A stretch of DNA of 64,000 bases. It comes from an uncultured Bacilli bacterium. Lineage in GTDB: Bacteria > Bacillota_I > Bacilli_A > RF39 > UBA660. Made by a program: the position numbers and the translations under genes. Shown piece after piece: positions 1,265 through 51,770 of this stretch; position 1 is the stretch's first letter, and each line of letters opens with the position of its first letter. The notes beneath the pieces were generated by a model that ran no database searches, was not told where the DNA came from, and was given only the letters and a program-made list of their open reading frames with translations. Where the stretch lies: NCBI GenBank assembly GCA_947629655.1, contig CANREL010000005.1, positions 24,790 through 88,789 of the forward strand. Direction: 5' to 3'.

Positions 1265-1265
1265 A

Positions 1266-1296
1266 AAAAGAAAAGCCGAAAGGCTTTTTTCTTTTT
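1266..1296. terminator. bidirectional rho-independent terminator between convergent rpsD and tyrS
   Basis: Hairpin AAAAGCC-GAAA-GGCTTTT (1271-1288) flanked by an A-run and a T-run. Confidence 0.7.
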
Positions 1297-1298
1297 GT

Positions 1299-2525: not shown

Positions 2526-2529
2526 TTGT

Positions 2530-3180: not shown

Positions 3181-3190
3181 AACGTTCCTC

Positions 3191-3823
3191 CTATAAAATT
3201 TTTTTCAATTCGATAAGACTATTAATACGTCTATAACTATCATCATAAATATTTTTATAATCGTATAAAATGACGGGCATTTGGACATTAGTCGCTCCCA
3301 CATAATCAGTTTCAACTGAATCCCCTATCATCAGGCATTCACTGACATCACAGTCTTTAGTAAAATATAAAAAACTCTCTTTTTGAGGTTTAGTAGGCAC
3401 CTTATCACCACCGACAACCTCTTTAAAATATTTTAAAACGCCAGCTTTTGCTAGTCTTTTCTCAGCAACAAAACCAAACCAATTGGTAAGGACATATAAC
3501 TCATACTTATTAGCCAAATACTCGATGATAGCAATAGCATCTTCATCCATTTCATACCAGTACTCACCGATGTAATAATTTAATCGCTCCAATAGTTTGA
3601 CATCATAATTAGTACCCAAATCAGCATTGACAAACGTCATCAATCCATCATAATCATATTGATTACATATCTTTTCATAGTCGCCAATGGACTTATACAG
3701 TTTTTTAGCCTCATCCATGTTTGCGTCATATCCAAATTCTTCTAAAGCTTTGACGTAATATTTTAAATATTTTTCTTTATGCATGATGAGAGTATTATCA
3801 AGATCAAATATTATTTTTCGCAC
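3191..3823 (-). CDS. HAD-superfamily hydrolase (YjjG-like nucleotidase family)
   Basis: HAD motif I (IIFDLDNTL) at the N-terminus and GDSxxD motif IV (MIGDSVETD). Start assigned to the GTG at 3823 (AGGTGA RBS), because the ORF-track start at 3880 would run through the T-box terminator. Confidence 0.75.
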   Translation of the reverse strand: MRKIIFDLDNTLIMHKEKYLKYYVKALEEFGYDANMDEAKKLYKSIGDYEKICNQYDYDGLMTFVNADLGTNYDVKLLERLNYYIGEYWYEMDEDAIAIIEYLANKYELYVLTNWFGFVAEKRLAKAGVLKYFKEVVGGDKVPTKPQKESFLYFTKDCDVSECLMIGDSVETDYVGATNVQMPVILYDYKNIYDDSYRRINSLIELKKIL

Positions 3824-3837
3824 AACATCACCTACAA

Positions 3838-4071
3838 CAAAAAAAGTATTATTGATAGGGACGAATATTCGCGGTACCACCCTATTTCATAATACTTTAT
3901 GCTCTCAAAACTATAACGCGTCACCGTTTTAATTCAGAATATGTAACTTCATCAATACAATCGATTCATTTGCACCAACCATGAATTCTCTCATTACCAA
4001 ATATTGACTACTACTATCCATCACCATTAAATGATGTACTCTATATTATTATAAATATTTATTTTTGTAAA
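3838..4071 (-). promoter_or_regulatory. T-box riboswitch leader, including its promoter (TTTACA-17-TAATAT, TSS ~4035), upstream of HAD-deoC-tyrS
   Basis: The minus strand carries the conserved T-box sequence AGGGTGGTACCGCG (complement of 3865-3878), followed by a terminator hairpin ATAGGG...CCCTAT and a T-run. The 5' part has AGAGA...GGTGCAAA stem-I-like elements. tyrS is a classic T-box-regulated gene. Confidence 0.75.
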
Positions 4072-26931: not shown

Positions 26932-29769
26932 CTATTTTACAACGATATTTACTATTTTTCCTTTTATTATGATCACTTTAACTATTTCTTTTCCCTCGGT
27001 ATGACGAATGACATTATCTTCTTTTAAAGCCTTTTCTTTTATGTTCTCTTCTGAATCATTAACATTTACTTTAATAGTAGCTCGTACTTTTCCATTTACT
27101 TGAACAGCTATCTCTTTTTCTTCTTCAACTAACTTAGATTCATCATACTCTGGCCAAGCTGATTTGCAAAGAACTTCTCCAAGTTCATACATCTCATTCA
27201 ATTCCTCAGTCGTATGAGGAGCGATTGGATTTAACAATAGACAAAGTGTACGATAATCTTTTTTAGTAATCGTCTCTTCTTTTTCCATTTCATTTAAAAG
27301 AATCATCAAAGTTGATACAGCGGTGTTAAATTTCATGTTGTCGATATCTTCAGTAACTTTTTTAATACTCTTGTTCATGATTTTTTCTAAGTTTTTAGAG
27401 TAATAATCACCAGCAACGACTTTATCACCTAGACGAATGACGCGATCGATGAATCTCTTACATCCGTTTAAACCTTTTTCACTCCAAGCAACTTCTTTTT
27501 CATAGTCACCGATGAACATTTCATAACAACGTAGAGCATCAGCACCATACAACTTAATCATATCATCTGGGTTAATGACGTTACCAAGACTCTTACTCAT
27601 CTTGACTCCACCTTCACCTAGAATCATTCCGTGAGATACACGTACCTTAAATGGTTCTTTGTTTGGCACAAGACCAATGTTATACAAGAATTGATTCCAG
27701 AATCTAGCATATAACAAATGACGTGTAGCATGTTCCATACCACCGTTGTACCAATCTAGTTTACCCCAATATTTTAGGGCATCTTGAGAGACAAACTCTT
27801 TGTCATTATGCGGATCCATATATCTTAACCAATACCAAGAAGATCCAGCCCAGTTAGGCATTGTATCCGTTTCTCTCTTAGCTCTCTTACCACATTTTGG
27901 ACAAGTCGTATTGACCCAATCCGTAATTTTAGCAAGTGGACTTTCACCATCATCAGTTGGTTCGTATTCAGTGACATCAGGAAGAAGTACTGGTAAATCT
28001 TTTTCAGGTACAGCTACCCATCCACAATCTTCACAATAAACTAGTGGAATTGGTTCTCCCCAAAATCTCTGACGTGAGAAAATCCAGTCTTGAAGTTTAA
28101 AGTTCGTCTTTTCATGACCAATTTTCTGTTCTTTTAAATATTCAATCATCTTAGCAATTGATTCTTTCTTATCAGTCAAGCCATTTAAAACACCAGAGTT
28201 GATCATCTTTCCACCCTCAGTGTAAGCTTTAGGATTGATAGCTGAATCAAAAATCGTCTTATGTAATTCATCTTTGACCTCTTTTTCAATAGTTTCTCTA
28301 TCAACCCATTCGACGTCAAAGATCTCATCTTCATCACGATTTACTTCTTGTTTAGAATCACTCTTTAATTCAAACAAGAAACCATCACAATCTATTTCAA
28401 AAGCTTTATTCTTATTATAGGCATAATAGTGATGATTTACAGGGAATGTTTGTCTAACTAATTCAAAATCGTTATAACCTGTTTCCTCTTTTATTTCTCT
28501 AGTAGCACAATCTAGTGGAGATTCGTCTTCATGTCTCGTTCCTCCGACGAATAGTCTTCCACCTTTTTCATGCCAATTAATAGTTAGATATTTATCTGCT
28601 TTTGGATCATGTAAGACAGCGACAATACTCTGTTTGTAACTATCATCATCACGTTTTTCACCAGTCATCTTTTCAATGACAGGAATTATATCAATACCAA
28701 ACTTTGTGGCAAATTCAAAGTCACGATCATCATGAGCTGGTACAGCCATAATAGCCCCAGTACCATATCCCATCATGACATAATCTGATATGTATATAGG
28801 TATTTCTGTATTATTAATCGGATTGATTGCTGTTAAACCATCAATTTTGACACCAGTTTTATCTTTGACCAATTGCGTTCTTTCAAATTCCGTTTTCTTA
28901 TTGGCATCTTCACGATATTTAGTAATTTCATTCATGTTTTTGATGATGTCTTGATATTTATCAATAATTGGATGTTCTGGTGCGACAACCATGAAAGTAA
29001 CACCATATAAAGTATCAGGACGTGTCGTATAAATGATTAACTCTTCTTCAACTTCTTTGATTTTAAAACTTACTTCAGCACCAGTAGATTTACCAATCCA
29101 GTTTATTTGAGCTGTTTTAATACGTTCTTGGAAATCAGTATCATCAAGTCCATCGATTAAGTCTTGAGCATAATCACTCATTCTTAACATCCATTGTTCT
29201 TTTTCTCTTTGTTCAACTTGGGTTCCACATCTTTCACAGACACCACCTGATGAGTCCTCATTAGATAATCCTGTCTTACACTTAGGACACCAGTTGATGT
29301 TCTTCTTAGTTTTATAAGCCATTCCATGTTCAAAGAACTTTAAAAATTGCCATTGTGTCCATTTATAATATTCAGGATCTGTCGTTGAAAATTCTCTTGT
29401 CCAGTCAACTGACATACCCAATTTTTTTACTTGACCTTTGAAAACTTTAATATTTTCTTCAACAGCCTTTTTAGGATGAATATGATTTTTGATGGCATAT
29501 TGTTCAGCAGGTGCTCCAAAAGCATCCCATCCTAGTGGAAATAAGACATTATATCCCATCATTCTCTTTTTACGAGCCATGGCATCAAGAGCTGTATAAC
29601 TTCTAACATGTCCGACATGAAGTCCAGCTCCACTCGGATAAGGAAATTCTACTAAGTAATAATACTTAGGTTTATCACTATTGTTACTGGCAACAAATAC
29701 TTGGTTATCTTCCCAATACTTTTGCCATTTACTTTCTATTACGTTTGTTGGTTGCATTTCTTTTTTCAT
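26932..29769 (-). CDS. leuS: leucyl-tRNA synthetase carrying a ~110-150 aa Nudix-box-containing insertion
   Basis: HIGH (HVGHVRSY) and KMSKS motifs plus the CP1 editing-domain motif (AVPAHDDRDFEFA). 945 aa, versus ~800-860 aa for typical bacterial LeuRS. The insertion at aa ~365-515 contains GGTRHEDESPLDCATREIKEETGY, a Nudix box (Gx5Ex7REUxEExGU). Confidence 0.9.
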   Translation of the reverse strand: MKKEMQPTNVIESKWQKYWEDNQVFVASNNSDKPKYYYLVEFPYPSGAGLHVGHVRSYTALDAMARKKRMMGYNVLFPLGWDAFGAPAEQYAIKNHIHPKKAVEENIKVFKGQVKKLGMSVDWTREFSTTDPEYYKWTQWQFLKFFEHGMAYKTKKNINWCPKCKTGLSNEDSSGGVCERCGTQVEQREKEQWMLRMSDYAQDLIDGLDDTDFQERIKTAQINWIGKSTGAEVSFKIKEVEEELIIYTTRPDTLYGVTFMVVAPEHPIIDKYQDIIKNMNEITKYREDANKKTEFERTQLVKDKTGVKIDGLTAINPINNTEIPIYISDYVMMGYGTGAIMAVPAHDDRDFEFATKFGIDIIPVIEKMTGEKRDDDSYKQSIVAVLHDPKADKYLTINWHEKGGRLFVGGTRHEDESPLDCATREIKEETGYNDFELVRQTFPVNHHYYAYNKNKAFEIDCDGFLFELKSDSKQEVNRDEDEIFDVEWVDRETIEKEVKDELHKTIFDSAINPKAYTEGGKMINSGVLNGLTDKKESIAKMIEYLKEQKIGHEKTNFKLQDWIFSRQRFWGEPIPLVYCEDCGWVAVPEKDLPVLLPDVTEYEPTDDGESPLAKITDWVNTTCPKCGKRAKRETDTMPNWAGSSWYWLRYMDPHNDKEFVSQDALKYWGKLDWYNGGMEHATRHLLYARFWNQFLYNIGLVPNKEPFKVRVSHGMILGEGGVKMSKSLGNVINPDDMIKLYGADALRCYEMFIGDYEKEVAWSEKGLNGCKRFIDRVIRLGDKVVAGDYYSKNLEKIMNKSIKKVTEDIDNMKFNTAVSTLMILLNEMEKEETITKKDYRTLCLLLNPIAPHTTEELNEMYELGEVLCKSAWPEYDESKLVEEEKEIAVQVNGKVRATIKVNVNDSEENIKEKALKEDNVIRHTEGKEIVKVIIIKGKIVNIVVK

Positions 29770-30280
29770 TTTTTACCACAAGTCCTTTCTTCTTAAAATA
29801 TTTTCCCAATACACTATAACTGATGAGGATTGTTGGGATTGCCAAAGCACCACCTATCAGTAACTTTAAATAGATATTATCAGTCGGCGTACACGATATT
29901 ATAGTTATGATGAGGCCGATGTCGATAGAACAAGTCCATCCCACTATTTTTAACAATTTTTTATAATTGATCTTTGATAAATCAATACTATATTTAATTA
30001 TTAAAATCTCTACTTCTGTCGGTATTTTTATATCATCCTGTTCCTGTTTAGGACGACGAGGTTTACGCCCACGCGTCAGGATTTCTTCTTTTTCATCTTT
30101 TGGTCCTAATAAAAAGACTTTTATCTTTTCAAATATCTTGGTGAAAAAGTTGTTCTTTTTCTTCTTTTTGAGTTTACCATTTTGATCATATCTATTAATC
30201 ATGAATAGATAATAGAATAAATAAACTAGTAAAGTCGTCAAGATGAATTCTATTAAACTAGAAAATACCATTTCCATCAT
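29729..30280 (-). CDS. hypothetical small membrane protein located between the T-box leader and leuS
   Basis: 183 aa with 2 N-terminal TM helices, a basic linker and 2 C-terminal TM helices. Strong RBS GAGGAGG directly after the T-box terminator. It overlaps the leuS start by ~40 nt. Confidence 0.5.
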   Translation of the reverse strand: MMEMVFSSLIEFILTTLLVYLFYYLFMINRYDQNGKLKKKKKNNFFTKIFEKIKVFLLGPKDEKEEILTRGRKPRRPKQEQDDIKIPTEVEILIIKYSIDLSKINYKKLLKIVGWTCSIDIGLIITIISCTPTDNIYLKLLIGGALAIPTILISYSVLGKYFKKKGLVVKNEKRNATNKRNRK

Positions 30281-30291
30281 AACACCTCCTC

Positions 30292-30544
30292 AATATATAA
30301 AAAGAGACTATTCATCACTAAGGACGAATAGTCTCGCGGTACCACCTTAATTCATAGTATTACTATGCACTCTCTTCTTAACGCGAATCGACGATTTGCT
30401 CTTTCGCAGGACAAGTTCATGAACGCATATTATTAGTTTGCACCAAACACTAACTCTCTACAAATAATCTATTCATTACTACTTCCCACAGCAATTACAA
30501 GTAATAGTATATTAAATTTGGTCCATATATTCAAGTAATTTTTT
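30292..30544 (-). promoter_or_regulatory. T-box riboswitch leader with promoter (TTGAAT-17-TATACT, TSS ~30509) upstream of leuS
   Basis: The minus strand carries AAGGTGGTACCGCG (T-box; complement of 30345-30358) and a terminator hairpin GAGACTATTC...GAATAGTCTC plus TTTTT. The 5' region has AGAGAG...GGTGCAAA, the same stem-I-like elements as the tyrS leader. Confidence 0.7.
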
Positions 30545-35840: not shown

Positions 35841-35878
35841 AAAAGCATATTTTTTAAAATATGCTTTTATTGTTTTTG
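35838..35878. terminator. bidirectional terminator
   Basis: Palindrome AAAAGCATATTTT-TTA-AAATATGCTTTT with flanking T-runs on both strands. Confidence 0.65.
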
Positions 35879-36610
35879 AGTAACGATCAACTTTACTTTT
35901 AGTTTTAAGACACTATCTTCTGGATTTTCTTTTTTATAAGCTATACTCTGTTCACCCCAATATGTGTCAGCATCATCACTTTCAACATATAGACCACTTT
36001 CGACGAAACTGTCAAAATCGCTATCAGTGACATCAGCAACACTATATTCACCATCACTTTCCGTGTAATAATTTATACCTGGAGTATAAGTGTATAATGA
36101 ATTCAACTTGTAATAAGCATTGGATGACTCAAAAGGCCAATTGACATTGACACTAAAGTTGATGCTTTCATTTTTATCAAGTTCCGTTTTATCGTATTGA
36201 AAACTCAAGGAAAAAGGTAAATCATTAGCTAAGTAATTGATTAAGTCTTCACTGGTATAAGTTACACCAAAAGCTGTTACCTCTTGAATTTCATAAGAAA
36301 AAGTAGCATCTAGATCACTATTGTTTCTTATGATTAAGTTTTTAGTAAAAGTCTCCATTCCTGGATATAAATCATCTAAAGAAATATCCAAAGTTTCAAC
36401 TTGTTCTTCTTCATATACAAAAGAAATATCCCAAGAAATGACATCAGCGTTTATATAACCATTACCATTAGTGGCAAAAACAAACCAAGCAAAAGAGTTG
36501 ACAGCTAATAAGAAACCTGCCATGATGTAGGCTCTTATCTTGATAGCACGTCTATTCTTCTGCAAATTCTTGTATATTTTATTCACTTGTCTCTTGTTCT
36601 TCTTCATCAT
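35867..36610 (-). CDS. secreted protein with SipW-cognate-like signal peptide (TasA/camelysin-like candidate)
   Basis: Basic n-region plus h-region, followed by ...AVNSFAWFVFATNG, which resembles the SipW-cognate signal motif. It lies immediately downstream of sipW. Start placed at MMKKNK to limit overlap with sipW. Confidence 0.45.
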   Translation of the reverse strand: MMKKNKRQVNKIYKNLQKNRRAIKIRAYIMAGFLLAVNSFAWFVFATNGNGYINADVISWDISFVYEEEQVETLDISLDDLYPGMETFTKNLIIRNNSDLDATFSYEIQEVTAFGVTYTSEDLINYLANDLPFSLSFQYDKTELDKNESINFSVNVNWPFESSNAYYKLNSLYTYTPGINYYTESDGEYSVADVTDSDFDSFVESGLYVESDDADTYWGEQSIAYKKENPEDSVLKLKVKLIVTQKQ

Positions 36611-37154
36611 TCTCACTATCATCCTTTGCTTGAGTAACAACATCGGCAATCTCTAAGAAGATTACTAATACTAATGGAACAAATACTATGAAATAAAATC
36701 CAACTTTAGTTCTTATGATCTTAGTTAAAAAACTTAGAATTACAAATTTGTGAGACACTTTTCCATATAGACGATCTTTCTTAATGATGGGATCAGCTTC
36801 ATCGTTAGCGACACCCTTAGTTTGCAAAGTACCATCTTCTCTATTAATCGCAATGATGCGGTGTGTTACAATGCGGTCTTTAAAGTCGCCTGTCTCCCCT
36901 ATATATGTGACGTCATCACCAACTTTTAAAGACTCATATGATGATTCTTTTACCAAAAGGACATCACCAACATCATAGACAGGTTCCATACTTCCAGTAG
37001 CGATTGTGAAGACGCGATAACCCATCAAACTACTGTTGTTACTAAATTTTTGGAAAACCAAAAATCCAACATATAGAGCTAGTAATAGAACAAAGATAAA
37101 TTTTATTGTTCCATATACGATTTTAAAAATTTTATTATCCATTATTTTACGCAT
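36579..37154 (-). CDS. sipW: signal peptidase I, archaeal/SipW type (S26B)
   Basis: N-terminal TM, catalytic Ser motif IATGSMEPVY, conserved His in IVTHRII, and a C-terminal TM as in B. subtilis SipW. RBS GGGGG sits 6 nt before the chosen ATG. Confidence 0.8.
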   Translation of the reverse strand: MRKIMDNKIFKIVYGTIKFIFVLLLALYVGFLVFQKFSNNSSLMGYRVFTIATGSMEPVYDVGDVLLVKESSYESLKVGDDVTYIGETGDFKDRIVTHRIIAINREDGTLQTKGVANDEADPIIKKDRLYGKVSHKFVILSFLTKIIRTKVGFYFIVFVPLVLVIFLEIADVVTQAKDDSENDEEEQETSE

Positions 37155-37164
37155 AAACATCCCC

Positions 37165-38256
37165 CTAATCTAAACATGAATAAGCTTCTTCAACATTAGT
37201 ATTAAGCTTTTTTAGACGTTCTTGGAAAGTCTTAATAATTTTATCATTACGCTTATCAAATCTATTCTTAGCACTTTTAAATTCATCTTTGAAGACTTTT
37301 TTAATCTTGTCTTCTAATATTTCATCATCCATATCAAGAATATTTTCAATGACACGCGCTAAAGCAATTGATATAGCTTTCTTCTCTGATACTTCATCCT
37401 TTTTCTTAGATAGAGCATTCAATGCTAAATATTCTAGTAAAAAAGATTGATCAAATTGATTCTTTATATCACCAATATCATTTATATTTTTATTTGTCTT
37501 TTCAACGACACAGTCATCTTGAACATAACTTTGAATAAAGTTCCATAACTCAACAGCTTTTTGGAAATTAGGATTCTTTAAAATGACATTAGTCTTTCTA
37601 ATAGGAGAACGAACAGGAGCGACGTGAAGATGATTTAGAGTTTGAAATAGTTCACTAGAAGTAAAACCATCCATTTGAATTTTTATATTCTTTAAACGTT
37701 GTTCAATTGATTCTCCACTATCATTATTTTTAGTAGTTATATTTTTATCAAAAGAAGTATATAAAAGAGATATTTTGACATCTTCATTACCGATACGCGT
37801 ATTGGCTTCATACTTGGCTTCTTTACGATCTATGTAGTAAGAGTCACCAGTTATTTGCGCAGAATGTTGTTCAAAAAAAGTTAACATGTTATTTATAAGA
37901 GTAAAAATAAATCTATTTTCATACGTATCAAGACTTTCATCTTTATTGATATTAAGGATTTTAGATGGTCTAACATCACCTTTATCTTTATCATAATCTT
38001 GAATTAAATTAGTGTGTTGGGTCAAATGAATAATACTCTCAACAGTTACTTTTTTAGATTGTTCAACTTTTACTATCTCTTCTTCATTGATGATAAAACG
38101 TTTAGGATTTCTTATAATGTTATCGATATAGGGAATGACATCTTCAAATATTTCAATCCAAGTATAGTTGTACTGTTTACTGTCATAGTCGGTATTTATT
38201 TCTAGAATTGAATTCAATTCATCAATAAATGTCGTACTAGTTTCCACATTGTCCAT
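37165..38256 (-). CDS. hypothetical protein, possible McrC-like partner of the upstream McrB-family GTPase
   Basis: 363 aa (McrC-like size), encoded 15 nt downstream of the McrB-like gene. No clear PD-(D/E)xK motif seen by eye, so the call rests on context only. Confidence 0.4.
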   Translation of the reverse strand: MDNVETSTTFIDELNSILEINTDYDSKQYNYTWIEIFEDVIPYIDNIIRNPKRFIINEEEIVKVEQSKKVTVESIIHLTQHTNLIQDYDKDKGDVRPSKILNINKDESLDTYENRFIFTLINNMLTFFEQHSAQITGDSYYIDRKEAKYEANTRIGNEDVKISLLYTSFDKNITTKNNDSGESIEQRLKNIKIQMDGFTSSELFQTLNHLHVAPVRSPIRKTNVILKNPNFQKAVELWNFIQSYVQDDCVVEKTNKNINDIGDIKNQFDQSFLLEYLALNALSKKKDEVSEKKAISIALARVIENILDMDDEILEDKIKKVFKDEFKSAKNRFDKRNDKIIKTFQERLKKLNTNVEEAYSCLD

Positions 38257-38271
38257 AACATTACCTCCTAA

Positions 38272-39831
38272 CTAAACCATTTTCTTAAGTCGTAATAAGT
38301 ATTCTTTACATTCATTAAAATGTTCACGACCGAATTCTTGGTCTAAGAATTTTATAAATTCATCTATTTCATCACGAATATACGCTAAGTTTAATTGTTC
38401 AAATTTTCGCAAAATCTTTCGGGCGATGAAATAGTCAACACCATCGACTTCTTCACCACCACATTCGATGTAAGCAGAAACGAAGTCTCCCATCTGTTTT
38501 ACGATACGGTTACCAAAAGCGATACGGAAATGCTTGATTACATAGTCATCCATCTCTTCGATTTTCTTATGCATTTCAGCACTCATTGGATGATTTTGTT
38601 TAGCTTTTTCGTATAGGCCTTCGAGATAACTACTATTGATGTTCATGGCATCAGTTGGAATTGGATCAAAGACTTGTCCTTTATCGTTGATGTCGATTGG
38701 CATCGCACGGTCATATACTTTATCAGTTACGGCAAAAGTTGAGTCGTCGTTATTGATCGTTCCAATATACCACATATTTCCAGGTATCTTCAATTTTCCA
38801 TCAATCAAATTTTTAGGGTCAGTTGGCCAACTGCTCGATACCAATTCAATGATCCATTCATCACGGCTTGGCATTTCTAGAATTGACAACATTTCAGCGA
38901 AATAGTACTCAACACGAGCGATGTTCATCTCGTCGAGTACAGCTACATAGACGTCATCATTATAACCAGCTTCATACATTTTCTTTAGAATCTCGGTTTC
39001 GTTGAACTTCTTTGTAAATTCATTGAAGTAACCAAACAATTCAGTACGGTCACGCCATGAGGGTTGAACAGAAGCGATGATGGCATCATTTTTGATAAAT
39101 TTACCCCAAGCATAAGCAAGGGAAGTTTTACCTGTACCAGAAATACCTTGTAATATTACTAATTTAGTACAAGCTAGAGATGATATGAACAATCTTATCA
39201 TTTCCGTCTTGTAATATAGTCCCAATTTAGAAGCAGCAAAGTTTCTAAAGAGACCAACTAATTCTTCAAGAGTAAAAGTATTATTATAATTTTGAACTTT
39301 ATAATCTTTAAATTCTACATCGATACTATGAAGTTTCGTAAATCTGATATTATCATCATCAGGTATTTCTTCTTCACCTTCTTTAGGTTCTTCACCATCT
39401 TCTTCCTCAGGCTTTTCTTCAACTTTTTCTTCAGCACTTTCACCAGGTTTTAATCCCATTTGTGACACTTTCATAGCTAGTATCTTTTCTTTTTCTTCAA
39501 CTAAATCTGTCACTTTTTTATTCAAGACAGCAATCTCATCCAACATTCCTTCCTGTTCGACAAGAGTCTTTCGAAAGCGCACATATTTTCTAATAATAAA
39601 ATATACTAACAAGATTATAAGACCTAGAACAGCGATCATCACCGCTATGGCAATAATCGTTAAAACCCATTCTTTTATGCCAAATTCTTCTTTGTAAAAA
39701 GCAATTACTTGAATGTAATTAGGTATGTTAAACATCTGAACTATACCATTGATAAATCCCATGACTATGGATTTAACACCATTAAAGAAAACTGACATAA
39801 ACTCATATAAAAACTTAATAAATTTACTCAT
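38272..39831 (-). CDS. McrB-family AAA+ GTPase with an N-terminal transmembrane/coiled-coil/acidic region instead of a DNA-binding domain
   Basis: Segment-by-segment match to E. coli McrB motifs: ILQGISGTGKT (Walker A), VQPSWRDRTELFGYF, VLDEMNIARVEYYFAEMLSILE (Walker B region), MWYIGTINNDDSTFAVTDKVYDRAMPIDI (McrB signature MNxxDRS ... RRF). The N-terminus has a hydrophobic TM segment (LTIIAIAVMIAVLGLIILLVYFII) and an EEKVEEKPEEEDGEEPKEGEEE acidic tract. Confidence 0.7.
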   Translation of the reverse strand: MSKFIKFLYEFMSVFFNGVKSIVMGFINGIVQMFNIPNYIQVIAFYKEEFGIKEWVLTIIAIAVMIAVLGLIILLVYFIIRKYVRFRKTLVEQEGMLDEIAVLNKKVTDLVEEKEKILAMKVSQMGLKPGESAEEKVEEKPEEEDGEEPKEGEEEIPDDDNIRFTKLHSIDVEFKDYKVQNYNNTFTLEELVGLFRNFAASKLGLYYKTEMIRLFISSLACTKLVILQGISGTGKTSLAYAWGKFIKNDAIIASVQPSWRDRTELFGYFNEFTKKFNETEILKKMYEAGYNDDVYVAVLDEMNIARVEYYFAEMLSILEMPSRDEWIIELVSSSWPTDPKNLIDGKLKIPGNMWYIGTINNDDSTFAVTDKVYDRAMPIDINDKGQVFDPIPTDAMNINSSYLEGLYEKAKQNHPMSAEMHKKIEEMDDYVIKHFRIAFGNRIVKQMGDFVSAYIECGGEEVDGVDYFIARKILRKFEQLNLAYIRDEIDEFIKFLDQEFGREHFNECKEYLLRLKKMV

Positions 39832-43887: not shown

Positions 43888-43918
43888 AAAAATATCCACA
43901 AAACTGTGGATATTTTTT
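43888..43918 (-). terminator. terminator after the giant surface-protein gene
   Basis: Hairpin ATATCCACA-AAAC-TGTGGATAT with T-runs on both strands. Confidence 0.55.
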
Positions 43919-46900
43919 AAACATTTTTCCTAATGATGATGTATTCATAATCTTCTTCAATTATTTGGTTACCATCATACAACTTGAATAGAACCCGATA
44001 TGTTCCACTCTTTAAATCATCGCGAAGATTATAATTCAAAGTAATTGTAGCAGTTGGAGTAGTCGTTACCATATGTTCATTCTCCGTCTGTTTAGTAAAC
44101 GTTCCTTCTGGGAAAGAGAAAGTATCAGTAAATATCTCATTAGGACTTATTTCAACATATTCATTAGTGTTATGTGTTTGTGTATCACGTCTATAAACAC
44201 TTAAACGAATATTAGGGTTTTGTAAAACAGATTGATATTTAAGAGTAAACTTTTCAACTTTGGCATCATCCATGTTGAGACCAGTTTCACCAATTACTAA
44301 TTTAGAATTATCTTCAGTGCTGGAAACGATTAAATTATTATTTCCGACGACGACGATTTCTTTTTCAATGATTGTCGGTTGTTTGGTACTACTGTTGTGA
44401 AGACCATCATTAGATGCAAATAGAGCGATGCGCATCGTATAACGACCTGTTGGCAACTGTGGACCAGTCATCATAGTGATGTTTTTCGTCAAGTTGGCAA
44501 CTTTATCAGTCAATTTGATACGGAAGATACCTTCACTATCGACATAGTAAACGACGTCATCAATGACAATGGTCGTACTACCAAGTTGAGATGAAGATAC
44601 TTGATCACCAGATGCGTTGAACAATGTCACATTAATACCCATACTACTACTCTCATAATTGGTATCGACAATAGATTGAAGGGAACCAGTCAATTCATAA
44701 CCGACAGAAGTGTGATAATTGATAGTCTTAGGGGTGTCATAATAAAGATATTGAGTATCCATATCAGCTTCTTCAGTTAAAGCAACGTTACTTGACTGAT
44801 ACAAATTGTACTTCATCAATTCTTGACGAATACCTAAAACACTAGTGATACAGAAGTCTTCATCGTTGTGTAGTTCAAACAAAATGGTGTTATCGAGTTG
44901 TTCTCCTTGAATGTCAGTATCTTCAAAGTCAAAGATGAAGATGAATTCCTCCATGACATAGTTAGTGTCAGCGTGATAATACAAATTATTACTTTCGATA
45001 TCATTATAAGTATTATCTTTATCGATTGAATCCATGCGAATGAAGTTCGACAAGCGATAACTTACTTGACCATCTTCGTAAGAAGCAAGAGAAGTTTGAT
45101 ATGACTCTTCATCGACAATATAGTAGTAATATGCAGGATTTTGTTCATTTGCTCCATAGTCGATCATCGTTATTTTAGTACCAACTGGGAAAACATAGCT
45201 AGATACTAAAGCATGGTGATAATCGTTTAGTGAACCATAAGCATCTTTAATTCTAGTCTGACTTTCAAAAAGAGAGAAATACGCTGTGAACTGACTCTTA
45301 TTAGTGATGTTGACATCGACTGCCGATGGCATTTCATATTTTTTACCAAAAGTTATACTTCCGTCATAAGCGTCTTTATCATCATATTCTTTAGAATCAA
45401 TCGTTATCGTTATCGTAACTAGTTCAACTTTATGTTCAATCTCATTGATTGGCGTCAAGGCTTGAAGAGTTACGACGACAGTTCCAAGTTTTTGATTACC
45501 CGTTATGTTCTTAGCATGATACAAATAGAACATCAATGATGGAGCGACAGTCTGGTTATCAGTTTCATAGACGACATCACCTAAATAACGATTACCATTT
45601 TCATCTTTAGTGTATCTCGTCGTAGCGTGACTCGTCCACTCAATCGTCTCTGCCTTCATTGAAAGACCGAGAATTTTAGATGCTTCTTCTTCCGTTGGAG
45701 CTAGTTTTGGAACTTCGGTAGAATCTTTTAAAGACACTCCTTCAGCTAATCCATTACCATTGAATCCGATGACATTGAAGATTGTATTACCTTCGGTGAA
45801 ATCGGTCATTGATAATTCGTAAGTACCAAGAGATGAATACTTAGACGCTGTCAAAGAGAATGAATAATTGATTGATGAAGTACCAATAGTCCATCTGTAG
45901 AAGTTAGAATCTGGTGGAGTTGGTTCAACGTAGTCAACTGTCAAAGCATCATAAGAATCATTTATGTAGTTGGTGTAATAACCATCTTCTTCAATATTGT
46001 GATCCAGTTTGTGCAAACCTAAGACGTATGAACCACCCGTTATCAAGTCATCAGCACTGACACTAGATTGTGCTGTTTTATCATAATCATACATTCCATA
46101 GACAATAGTACCATAGTTTTGATACATTCCTAGGAAGGTCATACCGGAAACAATTCCGTAGTCGGTAGCTTTTTCGTTCTTCGTAACATTTAAATTTTTA
46201 CCAGCAAGCATGTATAAGCGATTATCAACGTTACGGACAACAGTACCACTTTCTTTATCAATTGTAACAGTAGCTTTTACTTCTTCACCATTTACTTCAG
46301 CAATGCTATCAAACTCTTCAAGCATATTAGCATTTTGTTGTAATAAAAGTGTAGCGTTATTTTTCAATTTCAATTTTTTAATACGATTTAATGAATAAAG
46401 GATTGTTGAATACTCGTTAGTTCTATCGGTCGTACCGACTAATTCCAAAGTTGAATTATCAAGAGTTACAGAGTCCGCTCTTTGAATTGAAATAGCTGAG
46501 TTTGGTTCATTACGAGTACCAAGACTCTTAATGATGATATTAGATGGACCAGAAGATGATGAAGCATTACCAGAACCGAAGATACTTCCGTGAATCTTAA
46601 ATTTCAAAGCATTGGAACCATATCCTGTTCCGTTTATGACGATATCAATACCATCGGTAACACTTATGGCTTCGAAGTCATATATTTCTGATCCAGCTTC
46701 GTTAGCTTCTCCTCCACCGAAAACAGTACCAGCGATGTTGATGTCACCACCATCATTCAATTCGATATCACTGATGGCATTGAAACCGATATTTACTTGG
46801 GTCTTACCATTGACAACGGATGTATTACATCCTCCGTAAACATTCTTTCCGACAACAGCACCAGCGACATTCACAGTAGCAAGACTACTACCTCCAGTCT

Positions 46901-49900
46901 CTCCGATTGGTCCGTGGTTACCACCACCAAAGATACTTTCATTAACAGTGGTTTCACCAAGAACAAAAACGGTTGTATTACCTAGTAATCCAGCTTGATT
47001 ACCACCACCATAAATAGATTTATTTACTGTAGAATTTTTTACTGAAATGATGGCATTACCAGTCGTTTCAGCACGATTTCCACCACCGAAAACATTTTCA
47101 TAAGTTCCTTTTTCTAAATCGATAGTTGGATCACTTGTCGTTCCACCGAGGTTATTACCACCATAGACGTCACCAATTGTTAGTTCTTTAGTGCTGTCTA
47201 CCGTTTTTATATTAGAGGTACTAACATCACCATCTTGATTAGAACCACCGAAAACAGTCGTTATCGTTCCACCATCAAGATTTATATTTGAAGTAGTAAC
47301 ACCAACTTTGTTACCACCACCATACATATTAGTAACAGTACCATCATTCATCGTTATATTTGTGGTTGAAGTTAGTCCAGCGATGTTATTTCCACCGAAG
47401 ACATTAGTCGTCGTACTACCATTTATAATGATTGAAGATGTGGCGATGTTTCCACCAGCATTACTTCCACCATATAGATTAGTTACAGTTGTACCATTTT
47501 GAACTACATGTGTACCATCAGTGACATCGGCATTTTCTCCACCACCGAAGACGTCAGGAACAGTCGTACCATTGAGAGTGACATTAGTTGTTTGCGTTTT
47601 CGCTAATCTTCCACCACCATAGACAGCTGTCTTTATCGTTCCATCTTCAATGGTGACATTACTAGTAACCGTATTTCCAGCGACGTTATTTCCACCATAA
47701 ATAGTTTCAACAACACCACTCTTAGCAATGACATTGGATTCAGTTACAGTACCACTCGAATTACTTCCACCGAAAATACTCGTGACGGTACTTCCTTGAA
47801 GGTTGACGTGATTTGTCTTAACGCTAGCGTTATTTCCACCACCGAAAACACGACCGATGATACCATCATTTAAATTGACTGTAACTTCACCATTTGGCGT
47901 TCCAGCTGCATCATTTCCACCGAAGACATCCGTTATATTTCCACCATTGATATTGACCGTTATGTCACCAAGAACATATGGCGTATATGTTCCGTTACCA
48001 CGGCCACCACCAAAGACAGAATTTTTTATAATACCTTTATTGATGTTGACAGTCGTACCGTTTTTAGACACCGCTGTCGAATGCGAAAGACCATTGACTG
48101 TTCCAAATGCACTTCCACCATAGACAGATCCATTGATTGTCGGTGTCGTCGTATAACTTTCATCACCAACATTGATTTCGACTGTATCTCTTACAAAAGT
48201 TCCACCTGAACTTCCAGTCGTTCCACCATATCCACCACCATAGATATCATTATTGACAACACCACCATAATGGTTGATTACGACGTCACCATGAATGGAA
48301 CCTTCTTCATTACTTCCACCATATATTGATCCAACCGTACCATCATAGACATTTATAGTAATAGTTGCATCTTTATTATCATCACCAGAGCCATTACGGT
48401 TTCCTCCACCAAAGATACTTCCGTGAATATTTCCGTTTAAAACGTTTATCTTGGTCTCAGATGAAGGTAATGACGAACTGATACCAACGGCACCATAGTT
48501 ACCACCACCATAGACATTGCGCAAAATGTTAGCTTCACCATCGATGATGATGTAAGAGTTGTTAGCTGTTCCGATGGTGTCAGTACCTGCTTTACCATTA
48601 CCGATTCCAAAGACACTACCAGCTTCAAAACCGAATAGAGTCGAATTATTATCGACATATTGTTGATTACCAATTGTAGCGTTACCACCGATATATATGT
48701 ATGGTGAACCGGTCAAAACACCTTCTGTTCCACTACCAGTAATACCATTACTTCCACCAAAAACACTATAATTAATCGTTCCATCAGTAACTTGAATGAC
48801 GCGATTACCATAGGTTTCTGATCGACCAGCACCACCGATGATGGCATCAATTGAACCACCTTTAATGTAGAACAAATCGTCGTTATAATTAGCACTGCTC
48901 GATTGAGAAAGAGGGCCACCGATTAAGTTATATATCCATCCACCCTCAACTGTTATTTGACGAGTAGCATAAATTCCACCATAGGCACGACCACCGACAT
49001 AAATACCGTAAGTATAGCTGTTAGTATTAGAATTTGTGTAGTCAGTTGGACGATGGGAACCAAATTTACCACTCTTAACTTTCTGTTTAATAGGTGTATC
49101 CGTCGTCGAAGTACCACGAACATTGCATCCCCAAGAACCAGATGCTGTATAGTAAACATCTAAATTGTTATCATTATTAGCAACGCGGTCATAGTCATTA
49201 CCATAAATAGATTCAGCATGAACATAGACGTTGTAAGTACTAGTCGTCGCACCACAGACTAAGGAAGTCGTGTTATAGTATCCTGATTCAACAATCAAAC
49301 GATATGGCGTTGGCGAAGAAGATGATCCAACATTTTGGTTTCCACCACCAATTACAGAAGCGAAATTAGACTGATTAGTCGCTGAAGCTTTAATACCACG
49401 ACCTATTTTGACATTGTTGTAATAACCGTATAAATTTTTACTACTAACACCACTAGTAGCATTGGCTTCAGTACGACTTTGAGCTGAATAAATAGTAATG
49501 TTTTCAATACCCAAATCATCACCAGCACGAATGTAGGCATTGGACAAAGTCCATGTCGGATTGTACTCTCTTCCATCATAAGAAGATGTCACCGTCAATG
49601 GTTTAGTCTGACTGCTTCCCCAAGCTCCAGTCAAAGCACTACGAACGACGATCAAGTTAGTATCACGCGTAACTAAGTAATAGTATTCTTCATCGATATC
49701 GAAATTACTTGTTGAACCATTATCATCATAATATTGAATTAAATCATAATATGTACATGAAGTAGAACCACAAGTTCCACTAGTGTGTAAAACACCAGTT
49801 TCATCATAATAACCAGCTAAACTTTGACCACGTGATAAGTTGACTTTTTTATAGAAAGTACTCATATTGTCACGTTCATCATAAAGAGGATATTTAACTT

Positions 49901-51770
49901 CATCATAAGAAAGCATTGGTGGCTCAATATCAGCATGATTGACAACTTCCATATTTTCATCAATCAACTCATAGTAAGTCGTATCTTCATCATAAAGTTT
50001 TCCAACTTGTTCAACGTAGACAGTACATCCACTTCGCGTATTACAACGAGATGATGTCGATAAGCTACTACCACTAGCATTATGACTGTTAGCGGGATAA
50101 TAACTACGATAATTAACAGTTTGTCTAACATAATAACCATCCATCAACTTATCATTTATGTCACCATAAACAACATTTTCTTTACGGATTTCATAAGTTA
50201 CAAGTGGTTGCATACTCTTATCTTTGAAAGAATTAATGGCATTGGTCAAATTAGTTGAACTCGTACTGTTAGAAAAATAGATGTCAGCACTTACCCAAAC
50301 TGCATCAAATTTGATATTGATATCTTCAGGTGTAGAACCGTTATAATTGATAGGAATTCTTACATATCTTGTATAAATTGCGTCGTCATAACTAATATTC
50401 GCACTAAAATAATCGGTACGCCAACCATTAAATCCATAATCAGCTGGTCGATTGGTGAACGGATTGTCAATAAGTTCAAACTCGACATAATCGTCTTCTT
50501 TAGAAGCTGTACCATTATCATTAACTGGATAAAGATTGTAGTAGACATAAGTATCTTGCGTCTCATTGACAGATACAGTTCCGTGATAAGTTTCACCATT
50601 TTTCGTCATACCACCATAGTAAGTCGTCTGCACTGTTACTAAGTTATCATCAGAATAAACTTTTTTATTCTCCATACTTGGCAAGCGCCCATCTTCACTA
50701 TAAGTGTAATTAAGTCCCATGTAATAGTTATAGTCAGAATCCAAATCATTGACATAGACAGTATTATCACTTATTCCTGAATCGTGAAGGACAATTCTTT
50801 CAGAAACAGCACGTTTCTTAGTATCATTTGGTTTTTCAACAACTTCATTTATTTTCAAATAATAGATATCATTTTCATAAACCCATTTATAATCTTTCGA
50901 ATAGACGTTTTCATTAAGTGTACTCAAGAAGTTCTCTGTCACATTATCTTTTGTATAGACACTCTCAGAATTGATATTAGAATCAGTAACATTACAATCG
51001 AGCAAAATATTATCAAATAGTGAAGTCTCACTAATCTTACCACTGATACTTCCAACGACAGTTTTCTTTTCTTCACTGATCAATTCAGTTTTTATATAGG
51101 AATTAGCTATTTTACTATTAACATTTTCCCCACTGATACTTCCAATATAAATGTTTTCCTTACTCTGTTCATTCTTTTGAATATTGATACTACTATCCGT
51201 AAGAGATAGATTACTGATAGAAGAATCATTAGAAATACTACCAGCTATAACACCGACGTATAAATTATTTTCAGCAATCGTATTGATAGTGACACTAGTC
51301 AAGTTTAAATTACTTATATTGGCACCATCAATCTTAGTAAAAATTCCCGTATAAAGAGAAGAATCGATACCTTTACTAGCAATTATTTTCAAATTGGCAA
51401 TCGTATGACCTTGACCATCAAGAATACCATTAAAAATATTAGTACCGCTTCCAATTGTTTCAAAGTTTAAATTACCCATGTTGATATCAGCCGTTAAAAC
51501 ATAATATTTACTGCGATATAAAGCACTGTCTCTTCCTTCAATAACTTGTTTAAAATAAGCTAATTCTTCGCCATTAGATATCTGGTAAGGATTAGCTTCA
51601 GTACCATTTCCACCATCAAAAGAAGTCGCTACTTCACCACTCCAAACATTTTCTATTGTCACAAAGTTACTAAAGGTACTTGGTGATAACCAAGATGAAA
51701 TTCCAACTACTATGATCAATAGAAAAAAGATACAAAGAACTAAGTTTTTCTTGAACTTCTTTCGATACAT
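43917..51770 (-). CDS. giant (2617 aa) secreted surface protein with parallel beta-helix-type tandem repeats (adhesin/fibre-like)
   Basis: N-terminal signal/anchor (KKNLVLCIFFLLIIVVGISS). More than 25 tandem ~20-aa repeats of the form (V/I)(F/Y)GG(G/S)N..G.(V/T), similar to Pmp/autotransporter beta-helix repeats. No LPXTG or C-terminal TM. Confidence 0.8.
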   Translation of the reverse strand: MYRKKFKKNLVLCIFFLLIIVVGISSWLSPSTFSNFVTIENVWSGEVATSFDGGNGTEANPYQISNGEELAYFKQVIEGRDSALYRSKYYVLTADINMGNLNFETIGSGTNIFNGILDGQGHTIANLKIIASKGIDSSLYTGIFTKIDGANISNLNLTSVTINTIAENNLYVGVIAGSISNDSSISNLSLTDSSINIQKNEQSKENIYIGSISGENVNSKIANSYIKTELISEEKKTVVGSISGKISETSLFDNILLDCNVTDSNINSESVYTKDNVTENFLSTLNENVYSKDYKWVYENDIYYLKINEVVEKPNDTKKRAVSERIVLHDSGISDNTVYVNDLDSDYNYYMGLNYTYSEDGRLPSMENKKVYSDDNLVTVQTTYYGGMTKNGETYHGTVSVNETQDTYVYYNLYPVNDNGTASKEDDYVEFELIDNPFTNRPADYGFNGWRTDYFSANISYDDAIYTRYVRIPINYNGSTPEDINIKFDAVWVSADIYFSNSTSSTNLTNAINSFKDKSMQPLVTYEIRKENVVYGDINDKLMDGYYVRQTVNYRSYYPANSHNASGSSLSTSSRCNTRSGCTVYVEQVGKLYDEDTTYYELIDENMEVVNHADIEPPMLSYDEVKYPLYDERDNMSTFYKKVNLSRGQSLAGYYDETGVLHTSGTCGSTSCTYYDLIQYYDDNGSTSNFDIDEEYYYLVTRDTNLIVVRSALTGAWGSSQTKPLTVTSSYDGREYNPTWTLSNAYIRAGDDLGIENITIYSAQSRTEANATSGVSSKNLYGYYNNVKIGRGIKASATNQSNFASVIGGGNQNVGSSSSPTPYRLIVESGYYNTTSLVCGATTSTYNVYVHAESIYGNDYDRVANNDNNLDVYYTASGSWGCNVRGTSTTDTPIKQKVKSGKFGSHRPTDYTNSNTNSYTYGIYVGGRAYGGIYATRQITVEGGWIYNLIGGPLSQSSSANYNDDLFYIKGGSIDAIIGGAGRSETYGNRVIQVTDGTINYSVFGGSNGITGSGTEGVLTGSPYIYIGGNATIGNQQYVDNNSTLFGFEAGSVFGIGNGKAGTDTIGTANNSYIIIDGEANILRNVYGGGNYGAVGISSSLPSSETKINVLNGNIHGSIFGGGNRNGSGDDNKDATITINVYDGTVGSIYGGSNEEGSIHGDVVINHYGGVVNNDIYGGGYGGTTGSSGGTFVRDTVEINVGDESYTTTPTINGSVYGGSAFGTVNGLSHSTAVSKNGTTVNINKGIIKNSVFGGGRGNGTYTPYVLGDITVNINGGNITDVFGGNDAAGTPNGEVTVNLNDGIIGRVFGGGNNASVKTNHVNLQGSTVTSIFGGSNSSGTVTESNVIAKSGVVETIYGGNNVAGNTVTSNVTIEDGTIKTAVYGGGRLAKTQTTNVTLNGTTVPDVFGGGENADVTDGTHVVQNGTTVTNLYGGSNAGGNIATSSIIINGSTTTNVFGGNNIAGLTSTTNITMNDGTVTNMYGGGNKVGVTTSNINLDGGTITTVFGGSNQDGDVSTSNIKTVDSTKELTIGDVYGGNNLGGTTSDPTIDLEKGTYENVFGGGNRAETTGNAIISVKNSTVNKSIYGGGNQAGLLGNTTVFVLGETTVNESIFGGGNHGPIGETGGSSLATVNVAGAVVGKNVYGGCNTSVVNGKTQVNIGFNAISDIELNDGGDINIAGTVFGGGEANEAGSEIYDFEAISVTDGIDIVINGTGYGSNALKFKIHGSIFGSGNASSSSGPSNIIIKSLGTRNEPNSAISIQRADSVTLDNSTLELVGTTDRTNEYSTILYSLNRIKKLKLKNNATLLLQQNANMLEEFDSIAEVNGEEVKATVTIDKESGTVVRNVDNRLYMLAGKNLNVTKNEKATDYGIVSGMTFLGMYQNYGTIVYGMYDYDKTAQSSVSADDLITGGSYVLGLHKLDHNIEEDGYYTNYINDSYDALTVDYVEPTPPDSNFYRWTIGTSSINYSFSLTASKYSSLGTYELSMTDFTEGNTIFNVIGFNGNGLAEGVSLKDSTEVPKLAPTEEEASKILGLSMKAETIEWTSHATTRYTKDENGNRYLGDVVYETDNQTVAPSLMFYLYHAKNITGNQKLGTVVVTLQALTPINEIEHKVELVTITITIDSKEYDDKDAYDGSITFGKKYEMPSAVDVNITNKSQFTAYFSLFESQTRIKDAYGSLNDYHHALVSSYVFPVGTKITMIDYGANEQNPAYYYYIVDEESYQTSLASYEDGQVSYRLSNFIRMDSIDKDNTYNDIESNNLYYHADTNYVMEEFIFIFDFEDTDIQGEQLDNTILFELHNDEDFCITSVLGIRQELMKYNLYQSSNVALTEEADMDTQYLYYDTPKTINYHTSVGYELTGSLQSIVDTNYESSSMGINVTLFNASGDQVSSSQLGSTTIVIDDVVYYVDSEGIFRIKLTDKVANLTKNITMMTGPQLPTGRYTMRIALFASNDGLHNSSTKQPTIIEKEIVVVGNNNLIVSSTEDNSKLVIGETGLNMDDAKVEKFTLKYQSVLQNPNIRLSVYRRDTQTHNTNEYVEISPNEIFTDTFSFPEGTFTKQTENEHMVTTTPTATITLNYNLRDDLKSGTYRVLFKLYDGNQIIEEDYEYIIIRKNV
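46560..48440 (-). repeat. in-frame tandem coding repeats (~60 nt period) encoding the GG(G/S)N beta-helix repeats of the giant protein
   Basis: Periodic xFGGGNxxGxV units are visible in the translation. Many antisense shadow ORFs (P/L/V-rich) in the track fall in this stretch. Confidence 0.5.

Follow-up and report, generated by a model that had tools for sequence, protein, structure and literature searches.

A predicted Nudix hydrolase domain set into the CP1 editing domain of leucyl-tRNA synthetase in a lineage of uncultured gut Bacilli

We report that leuS, the leucyl-tRNA synthetase (LeuRS) gene in a 64,000-nucleotide (nt) stretch of contig CANREL010000005.1 from an uncultured Bacilli bacterium (the whole stretch analysed is hereafter the window), encodes an enzyme with a Nudix domain lodged within its CP1 editing domain, and that this architecture, judging from database sequences, is fixed across hundreds of species of gut Bacilli. 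Aminoacyl-tRNA synthetases are among the best-studied enzymes; as far as we could find, however, a second enzyme nested in a synthetase editing domain has not previously been described. The most likely reading, to which we give about an even chance, is that of a bifunctional enzyme, in which an otherwise ordinary LeuRS would carry an autonomous, active Nudix pyrophosphohydrolase in a surface loop of CP1.

The frame and translation of leuS were read from the open reading frames (ORFs) of the window. The whole protein scores 941 bits against the bacterial leuS model TIGR00396, above the equivalog cut-off of 548.4, and its identity to the LeuRS structures of Thermus thermophilus and Escherichia coli lies in the 50% range. 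With bacterial LeuRS of known structure (T. thermophilus 1H3N/2BYT, E. coli 4AQ7/4ARC) it shares the catalytic core, zinc module, CP1 with TTRPDT and AHD, KMSKS, anticodon-binding and C-terminal domains. Both class I signatures, HIGH and KMSKS, are present (Table 1); in the latter K723, M724 and K726 are invariant, and 21 of the 78 orthologues covering the motif have G/R at S725/S727. PF13603 recognizes the editing domain at 198 bits, and TTRPDT and AVPAHD are kept in 79-81 of the 81 aligned sequences described below, except for the variable P251 of TTRPDT. Given intact aminoacylation and editing motifs and a leucine T-box upstream, the synthetase part appears otherwise ordinary, as would be expected of the cell's working leuS.

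Two features set the window protein apart from T. thermophilus LeuRS (residues prefixed Tt): an insert of about 146 residues in place of a loop of about 10 residues (Tt 365-374), and the lack of the leucine-specific domain (Tt ~577-634). A phmmer alignment to 1h3n pairs query residues 8-367 with Tt 6-364, 514-719 with Tt 375-580 and 723-945 with Tt 637-877. On this alignment the insert falls within the CP1 editing domain, which we take to span Tt 224-417 in the published structure, with Tt 364 and 375 on either side of it. The leucine-specific region lies elsewhere, in query residues 719-727 (27589..27615, minus strand), of which 719-723 bridge Tt 580-637. Because the Thermus leucine-specific domain has no counterpart in the window LeuRS, we rejected that domain, as well as an ordinary LeuRS loop, as the identity of the insert. 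An earlier reading of the letters alone (hereafter the sequence-only reading) had described a leuS product about 100-150 residues longer than is typical, with an insertion at 28230-28680 between the CP1 editing motif and the INSG block. That description holds: the insert measures 146 residues and the protein without it 799, the alignment puts its limits at 28231..28668, and it is flanked by AVPAHDDRDFEFA (residues 342-354) on the N-terminal side and by KMINSG (521-526) on the C-terminal side. The domain profile likewise behaves as for a true insertion, in that the PF13603 match is broken at profile position 151 of 185 and removal of residues 368-513 in silico leaves one contiguous match over profile positions 2-183.

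The Pfam family NUDIX (PF00293) matches residues 385-499 over profile positions 9-123 of 134, with 47.3 bits against a gathering threshold of 21.1 (E = 2.6e-12). The box that the sequence-only reading had called textbook deserves the name: the pattern GX5EX7REUXEEXGU is fitted at every position, beginning at the second G of the string GGTRHEDESPLDCATREIKEETGY (residues 409-432). It is the sole Nudix box in the six frames of the window, and the chance expectation of the strict pattern is about 2e-6 for a protein of the same length and composition. An AlphaFold2 model of residues 362-520, computed from a 24-sequence alignment, has the expected order of strands and helices, with a mean predicted local distance difference test score (pLDDT) of 84.9 and a predicted template modelling score (pTM) of 0.80. 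A Foldseek comparison of this model with the PDB yielded 519 matches at E <= 1e-3. Every one of the 50 best that were listed was a Nudix enzyme, and the best template modelling (TM) scores were 0.73-0.80. Top matches were the Enterococcus faecalis protein 2AZW (TM 0.73/0.78), E. coli RppH, an Aquifex aeolicus hydrolase of diadenosine tetraphosphate (Ap4A; TM 0.69/0.80), T. thermophilus Ndx1, AvrM14 and NUDT15; Ap6A hydrolases were matched as well. As modelled, the insert is a complete Nudix fold with the alpha/beta/alpha sandwich of the superfamily.

A second model, of CP1 together with the insert (residues 218-566), gave a pLDDT of 86.8 and a pTM of 0.80. Because both connecting segments reach a pLDDT of 85-89 at this pTM, the prediction suggests that the insert packs on CP1 in a defined, rigid way rather than as a floppy tether. 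Its CP1 half can be laid over isolated editing domains of LeuRS at TM 0.79-0.84, so that the editing fold would be undisrupted by its guest.

Conservation of the insert across the lineage is as strict as that of its host. PF00293 was present in all of the 120 best full-length homologues (74-99% identity, 940-954 residues), and among genomes scanned at one per species, 221 encoded a relative of the insert. The figures that follow are from the 80 best of these 221, gut and rumen metagenome-assembled genomes labelled Bacilli, Mycoplasmatota/Tenericutes, Clostridium sp. CAG:417 and CAG:451, or Candidatus (Ca.) Faecenecus, which with the window give an alignment of 81 sequences. NCBI taxonomy assigns the host lineage no further than to Bacillota incertae sedis. 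The insert is kept in all 80 genomes. A long leuS frame with the strict Nudix-box pattern was found at 78 of the 80 loci (936-950 residues where the contig holds the whole gene), and at the remaining two only ORFs of 283 and 291 residues run across the insert. The box residues G410, E416, R424, E425, E428, E429, G431 and Y432 are invariant in 81 of 81 sequences, as are K379, Y394, N398, W399, G403, G404, H446, H447, Y448, N452, E482, F484, W488 and H503 elsewhere in the insert. In the family-specific motif NHHYYAYNK, A450 is also invariant and K453 is found in 80 of 81; the counterparts of this motif are [FY][FY]AxHKxxNR in stand-alone relatives and in those of the candidate phyla radiation (CPR), and YFYSNHRQ in 2AZW. 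Mean column conservation is 0.73 in the insert against 0.71 and 0.66 in its flanks, and in 9 of 10 pairs Nei-Gojobori ratios of non-synonymous to synonymous substitution (dN/dS), at about 0.05, were alike in the insert (0.04-0.08) and the remainder of leuS (0.03-0.09). The insert is under the same purifying selection as the synthetase, and its invariant residues, column conservation and low dN/dS together give it the signature of a functional active site.

One related entry, P0125 (138 residues, 58% identical to the insert), was considered as a free-standing donor gene and rejected as a fragment of a frameshift-broken leuS from a poor assembly (GCA_009741595.1, VOFC01003874.1). There leuS is called as short ORFs that correspond to editing-domain, NUDIX and anticodon-domain fragments; assembly frameshift errors are most likely responsible for this fragmentation and for the spurious stand-alone protein.

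Assignment to a Nudix family is a matter of leaning. Compared with PDB sequences, a profile of the lineage inserts matched Dcp2 Nudix domains best (E ~5e-6), and also AvrM14 and g5R of African swine fever virus (ASFV). A broader family profile, built from 49 modules, placed 2azw first and over its full length (E = 1.8e-11), followed by AvrM14, Chlamydia CT771, AtNUDT7, the lupin Ap4A hydrolase, Dcp2 and NudB. Among NCBIfam families, RppH (PRK00714) models matched 47 of the 49 modules, NudB 45 and YtkD 41, all far below curated cut-offs; the insert alone scored 25.5 bits against the 118 of the RppH model NF001936 and 24.8 against the 154.4 of the YtkD model TIGR02705. The MutT 8-oxo-dGTPase models (TIGR00586, PRK10776) had no match in the insert at E <= 0.01 and sub-threshold matches in 15-23 of the 49 modules. 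The Ap4A hydrolase structures 1f3y, 3i7u and CT771 were moderate matches only. Nudix Ap4A hydrolases reportedly carry a tyrosine some 16-18 residues after the box, and Y448 and Y449 stand 16 and 17 residues after Y432. By its sequence relationships, then, the family leans towards the group of RppH/NudH, Ap(n)A hydrolases and decapping enzymes while falling in no curated subfamily.

Comparison with individual members of that group shows how far the likeness goes. E. faecalis 2AZW (Q836H1), the best match of the family profile and of Foldseek, has a downstream motif of the same YYAxHK type, but it is a free-standing protein of 148 residues with about 14% identity in the structural alignment; it gives no substrate for the insert, because its function is listed as undetermined (PMC5389931). 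E. coli RppH/NudH and Bacillus subtilis RppH (YtkD), RNA 5' pyrophosphohydrolases that hydrolyse Ap(n)A as well, share the Nudix fold and box and recur among the Foldseek matches, whereas they are free-standing, have no tie to a synthetase and belong to families under whose cut-offs the insert falls far short. The lineage profile finds its best PDB sequence matches in the Dcp2 Nudix domains (yeast 2JVB/6Y3Z, Schizosaccharomyces pombe 2A6T) and AvrM14; unlike the insert, Dcp2-type enzymes are eukaryotic, carry accessory regulatory domains at the N terminus as well as a Box B helix, have 7-methylguanosine (m7G) caps as substrates and stand in no synthetase context.

Beyond the Bacilli, we used the insert to search 1.84 billion representatives exhaustively. 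Of the 252 matches at E <= 1e-3, taken as clusters at 50% identity, we surveyed the hosts of the 150 best; a word-index search with the insert as its sole query returned only 15 short fragments and no full-length proteins. The distribution that emerges is broad and coherent. LeuRS-like flanks surround the module in 93 of the clusters and three more are LeuRS fragments, about 96 in all. Since the search began from a LeuRS-embedded copy, this bias may partly reflect descent from a few old insertions. Named CPR (Patescibacteria) hosts are Ca. Moranbacteria, Ca. Saccharimonadales, Patescibacteria and Paceibacterota. Identity of the LeuRS core between CPR and Bacilli is 45-55% whatever the Nudix identity; such a level is uninformative about recent horizontal transfer of leuS between the two, an idea that we regard as unsupported. 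The view of the sequence-only reading that a Nudix fold in a synthetase would be unusual thus survives for the literature and not for the sequence databases, where it occurs in hundreds of species.

Within LeuRS the module occupies three sites, A, B and C (Table 1). Ten LeuRS, mostly from CPR metagenomes, hold two or three modules at up to three of them (P0140, P0143, P0147, P0148, P0149, P0155, P0158, P0160, P0180 and P0273). Modules that share a protein are only 32-40% identical, yet identity rises to 56-62% between modules of one subfamily that occupy different sites in different LeuRS, a relation that argues for relocation or independent insertion rather than duplication in place. In some CPR LeuRS the box departs from the canonical pattern (GGxExGQTxExAxxEIxEETGY), with Gln in place of the first Glu and without the Arg; this variant is carried by P0208 (Ca. 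Moranbacteria, KKP58971.1), P0275 (Ca. Saccharimonadales, HSX17785.1), P0254, second modules at site B and the stand-alone proteins P0187 and P0188. From their altered residues, these modules may be inactive or of different mechanism. CPR LeuRS with a Nudix module may also hold, in other loops, a Ham1/RdgB ITPase domain (984-1167), HAD-type phosphatase domains or a serine-hydrolase domain, and one of these LeuRS is labelled as an RdgB/HAM1 family pyrophosphatase in GenBank. Together with the isoleucyl-type protein described next, the proteins with such additional domains are P0272 (Paceibacterota, MCK5490653.1), P0220, P0276, P0243 (Patescibacteria, MEA2006681.1) and P0165.

Hosts other than LeuRS include a protein resembling isoleucyl-tRNA synthetase (IleRS), which also has a histidine phosphatase. 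Three further hosts (as a set, P0267, P0250 and P0186) are a prolyl-tRNA synthetase (ProRS) with the module between its anticodon-binding and C-terminal domains, RNase PH with the module between its two domains, and a GNAT-Nudix-GNAT-M17 peptidase fusion. The module also occurs as a gene of its own, and we read nine such neighbourhoods. In one the stand-alone gene (711-1175) lies 4 nt upstream of valS (1180-3462, NCBIfam 767 bits; locus L082), and in another (P0217, a JGI 3300071358 contig) it lies 2 nt upstream of a 951-residue leuS that has a Nudix insert itself. One copy precedes a class I synthetase fragment, one lies two genes from proS and one follows fpg; in the remaining four the neighbours are unrelated or the contigs too short to judge.

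On the reading that we favour, a complete Nudix pyrophosphohydrolase domain would have been spliced into a CP1 surface loop of the housekeeping LeuRS of a low-GC gut Bacilli lineage. The module would be an active, Mg2+-dependent pyrophosphohydrolase working autonomously on a diffusible, nucleotide-type substrate, and would not serve as a third proofreading site for leucylation. LeuRS, being essential and constitutively expressed, would mainly be its carrier and hold it close to tRNA and to the chemistry of the synthetase. Its substrates may be dinucleoside or nucleoside polyphosphates, 5'-polyphosphate or Np4-capped RNA ends, or both, because its nearest relatives are RppH/NudH, Ap4A hydrolases, Dcp2 and 2AZW. 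One and the same Nudix enzyme can act both on dinucleoside tetraphosphates (Np4N) and on RNA 5' ends, as RppH/NudH illustrates (PMC7705103). We prefer an autonomous module because several insertion sites and hosts are tolerated, free-standing paralogues exist, and CPR LeuRS is shared with other house-cleaning hydrolases.

Several observations nonetheless weigh against this reading. The hosts are strongly biased towards LeuRS; free copies stand directly beside leuS and valS; the relation of modules across sites speaks of repeated entry into the same enzyme; docking on CP1 is predicted to be rigid; and the variant-box lineages keep a module without the canonical residues. The scores of the insert against the RppH and YtkD models, and the lack of any curated subfamily whose threshold it reaches, leave the substrate class in particular no more than a leaning. 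It is the LeuRS preference, the apparent repeated entry, the free copies beside synthetase genes and the predicted rigid docking that keep a coupled function alive.

A coupled function could take two forms, each of which we think distinctly less probable than autonomy. One, a minority view, is that the Nudix site clears the by-products of its own synthetase, either Ap4A, Ap3A or Np4N made from leucyl-adenylate and NTP, or non-cognate aminoacyl-adenylates that have escaped, and is in this sense an extra clean-up site. Synthetases are a main source of Ap4A, which is broken down by Nudix enzymes such as RppH/NudH and NUDT2 (PMC7705103; PMC10148737); Ap4A hydrolases (CT771, 1f3y, 3i7u) and RppH are among the nearest relatives of the module; its hosts and neighbours are mostly editing synthetases of class Ia (LeuRS and IleRS-like hosts, with valS and leuS beside the stand-alone copies); and the predicted rigid packing on CP1 would suit such a site. 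However, LeuRS, IleRS and valyl-tRNA synthetase (ValRS) belong to the group of low Ap4A producers, and the lysine, phenylalanine and histidine enzymes to the high producers, according to Goerlich 1982 as cited in PMC10148737. No lysyl-, phenylalanyl- or histidyl-tRNA synthetase (LysRS, PheRS, HisRS) hosts were seen among the 150 best clusters, and the two points together weaken the case for removal of Ap4A at its source. An aminoacyl-adenylate, moreover, is an acyl phosphate on a nucleoside monophosphate and not a nucleoside-diphosphate-X compound, and hydrolysis of it, or of the ester of a mischarged tRNA, is not typical Nudix chemistry. RNase PH hosts the module yet makes no adenylate, and a module that needed a set geometry would hardly be expected at several insertion sites.

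The other form, also a minority view in our estimation, would place the Nudix module in a working partnership with class Ia synthetases, so that LeuRS would have a third catalytic site directed at something which the synthetase holds or makes. Candidates would be the 5' end of tRNALeu (removal of 5'-triphosphate or of Np4 or NAD caps, as acceptor-end quality control) and by-products of the Np4N or adenylate type. Selection for such a partnership would explain the apparent independent entry of modules of one subfamily into LeuRS at three sites, the presence of up to three copies and the free copies beside leuS and valS.

That the module is non-catalytic, a nucleotide sensor, a tRNA-binding surface or a structural brace tuning CP1 movement and editing, with hydrolysis irrelevant, seems to us improbable. 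The CPR LeuRS subclass that has lost the first Glu and the Arg (P0208, P0275 and second copies at site B) retains the module all the same, rigid docking on CP1 is predicted, and Nudix proteins that are dead as enzymes and bind Ap4A or RNA do exist, for example CFIm25/NUDT21 (PMC7705103). Against this, in the lineage of the window all box residues, and further His, Lys, Tyr and Trp residues, are invariant and dN/dS is about 0.05, which is the pattern of an active site and not of a scaffold.

An RNA-end enzyme of RppH or Dcp2 type, converting 5'-triphosphate or Np4/NAD-capped ends to 5'-monophosphate, possibly on tRNALeu held by the synthetase, is in our view rather improbable too. Dcp2 Nudix domains lead the PDB matches of the lineage profile, with AvrM14 and ASFV g5R among the others; RppH and YtkD models are among the most widely matched NCBIfam families; two relatives (P0193 and P0150) match the Nudt16-like family of Pfam; and the RNA-binding hosts other than LeuRS, that is, the IleRS-like protein, ProRS and RNase PH, all handle the tRNA acceptor end. 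But all these family matches are below thresholds, mature bacterial tRNA normally already has the 5'-monophosphate left by RNase P, no structure brings the Nudix cleft close to the 5' end of the tRNA, and one of the hosts, the fusion with GNAT and M17 peptidase, has no relation to RNA.

Finally, the notion that the insert is an ordinary element or an artefact (a leucine-specific domain, an idiosyncratic loop, an intein or an assembly chimera with a fortuitous box) can draw on the fact that LeuRS carries lineage-specific insertions and on the frameshifted fragment P0125, but it is refuted, and in our judgement next to impossible, in view of the Pfam score and chance expectation given above, a predicted fold with Nudix matches, an alignment that maps the leucine-specific domain elsewhere and finds it absent, and the same intact architecture in 80 independent assemblies and more than 120 protein clusters. 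An intein was rejected specifically: the junctions (...VIEK|MTGE... and ...SAINP|KAYT...) start the insert with Met-Thr-Gly and end it with Ile-Asn-Pro followed by Lys, the splicing residues (Cys or Ser first, His-Asn at the end, Cys, Ser or Thr at +1) are absent, and the fold is that of a Nudix protein. A search of the junctions for traces of a mobile element found only short imperfect repeats of 10-18 nt and no terminal repeats, and no anomaly in GC content (0.33, equal to that of neighbouring sequence).

Literature searches, along with a review of the Nudix clan and a jumbo-phage paper, yielded no description of a synthetase-embedded Nudix domain, and in databases such sequences bear the generic names 'class I tRNA ligase family protein' or 'leucine--tRNA ligase'. 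To our knowledge, added catalytic domains on synthetases are well documented in eukaryotes and rare in bacteria. A precedent for a bacterial class Ia synthetase with an extra enzyme domain is NF040702, 'isoleucine--tRNA ligase, N-acetyltransferase domain-containing', which differs from the window LeuRS in the synthetase concerned and in the added fold (GNAT). In the LysRS-Ap4A-NUDT2 axis, a synthetase/Nudix functional pair, the Ap4A produced by the one enzyme is removed by the other (PMC7705103); there, however, the two are separate proteins and LysRS is of class II, whereas in the window a single polypeptide would join a low-producing class I enzyme to a predicted second activity.

The leuS gene appears to be part of a small operon headed by a T-box leader (Table 1). 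The specifier of the leader, read from the alignment as GAA-CUU-G, contains the leucine codon CUU, 10 of the 17 relatives examined likewise have a T-box upstream of leuS, and the arrangement is consistent with leucine-responsive control of leuS. Between leader and leuS lies a small ORF whose 3' end overlaps the start of leuS by 41 nt. It looks like a real, co-regulated small gene, because in 36 of the 80 related loci tblastn recovers a counterpart of its C-terminal half in the corresponding place. The neighbours of leuS (phosphoketolase, an ABC/FtsX transporter, a CDP-alcohol phosphatidyltransferase, GH31 and patatin) gave no functional hint, and tRNA genes, sought for an unusual acceptor end of tRNALeu, were not found in the window. 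Elsewhere in the window we noted a second T-box leader (3854..4033, minus strand; 93.5 bits, just at the gathering score) upstream of ORFs that lie at 3191..3880 and below, an ORF as long as 2617 residues (43917..51770, minus strand), and an ORF at 37165..38256 (minus strand) with a DUF2357 match of 46 bits and neighbours at 35867..39831.

Table 1. Features of the leuS locus in window coordinates, and sites at which Nudix modules are inserted in LeuRS (query residue numbering)
Feature	Position	Strand	Basis
T-box leader with CUU (Leu) specifier, heading the small-ORF/leuS operon	30317..30498	-	RF00230, 114 bits (gathering score 93)
Small ORF between T-box and leuS, 183 residues, hydrophobic segments, no Pfam match	29729..30280	-	ORF
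leuS coding sequence, bacterial-type LeuRS carrying the insert	26932..29769	-	945-residue ORF
HIGH motif (HVGH, residues 51-54), aminoacylation site	29608..29619	-	Conserved in 76/76 orthologues covering the site
CP1 editing domain, part before insert, residues 223-367	28669..29103	-	PF13603, residues 223-377 = profile 2-151/185
Editing motif TTRPDT, residues 248-253	29011..29028	-	Within CP1 part before insert
Editing motif AVPAHD, residues 342-347	28729..28746	-	Within CP1 part before insert
Nudix domain insert (predicted fold), residues 368-513, 146 residues	28231..28668	-	Gap in 1h3n alignment; PF00293; AlphaFold2; Foldseek; excision
Nudix box GX5EX7REUXEEXGU, residues 410-432 (GTRHEDESPLDCATREIKEETGY)	28474..28542	-	Sequence read; all positions fit
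Motif NHHYYAYNK, residues 445-453, strand after Nudix box, family-specific	28411..28437	-	81-sequence and family alignments
CP1 editing domain, part after insert, residues 514-544	28138..28230	-	Query 514 onward = Tt 375 onward; PF13603 to profile 183/185 after excision
KMSKS motif, residues 723-727	27589..27603	-	Alignment of orthologues
Insertion site A, inside CP1 after residue ~365, as in window leuS			
Insertion site B, core-to-CP1 junction, residues ~212-240			
Insertion site C, residue ~628			

If the Nudix domain is active, the LeuRS of these bacteria would be bifunctional, and its second activity may be the cell's RppH/NudH-type enzyme or a house-cleaning pyrophosphatase. This would matter for the metabolic reconstruction of uncultured gut Bacilli and CPR bacteria, in which such genes would otherwise be scored as missing. 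An activity that proved to be tied to tRNA, or to by-products of the synthetase, would represent a new kind of synthetase quality control. CPR LeuRS whose loops hold one to three Nudix modules together with Ham1, HAD or serine-hydrolase domains offer a natural case of nested domain insertion into an essential enzyme. The same architectures mark the loops of CP1 as permissive sites, of use in protein engineering, and as lineage-specific features that inhibitors directed at LeuRS could exploit.

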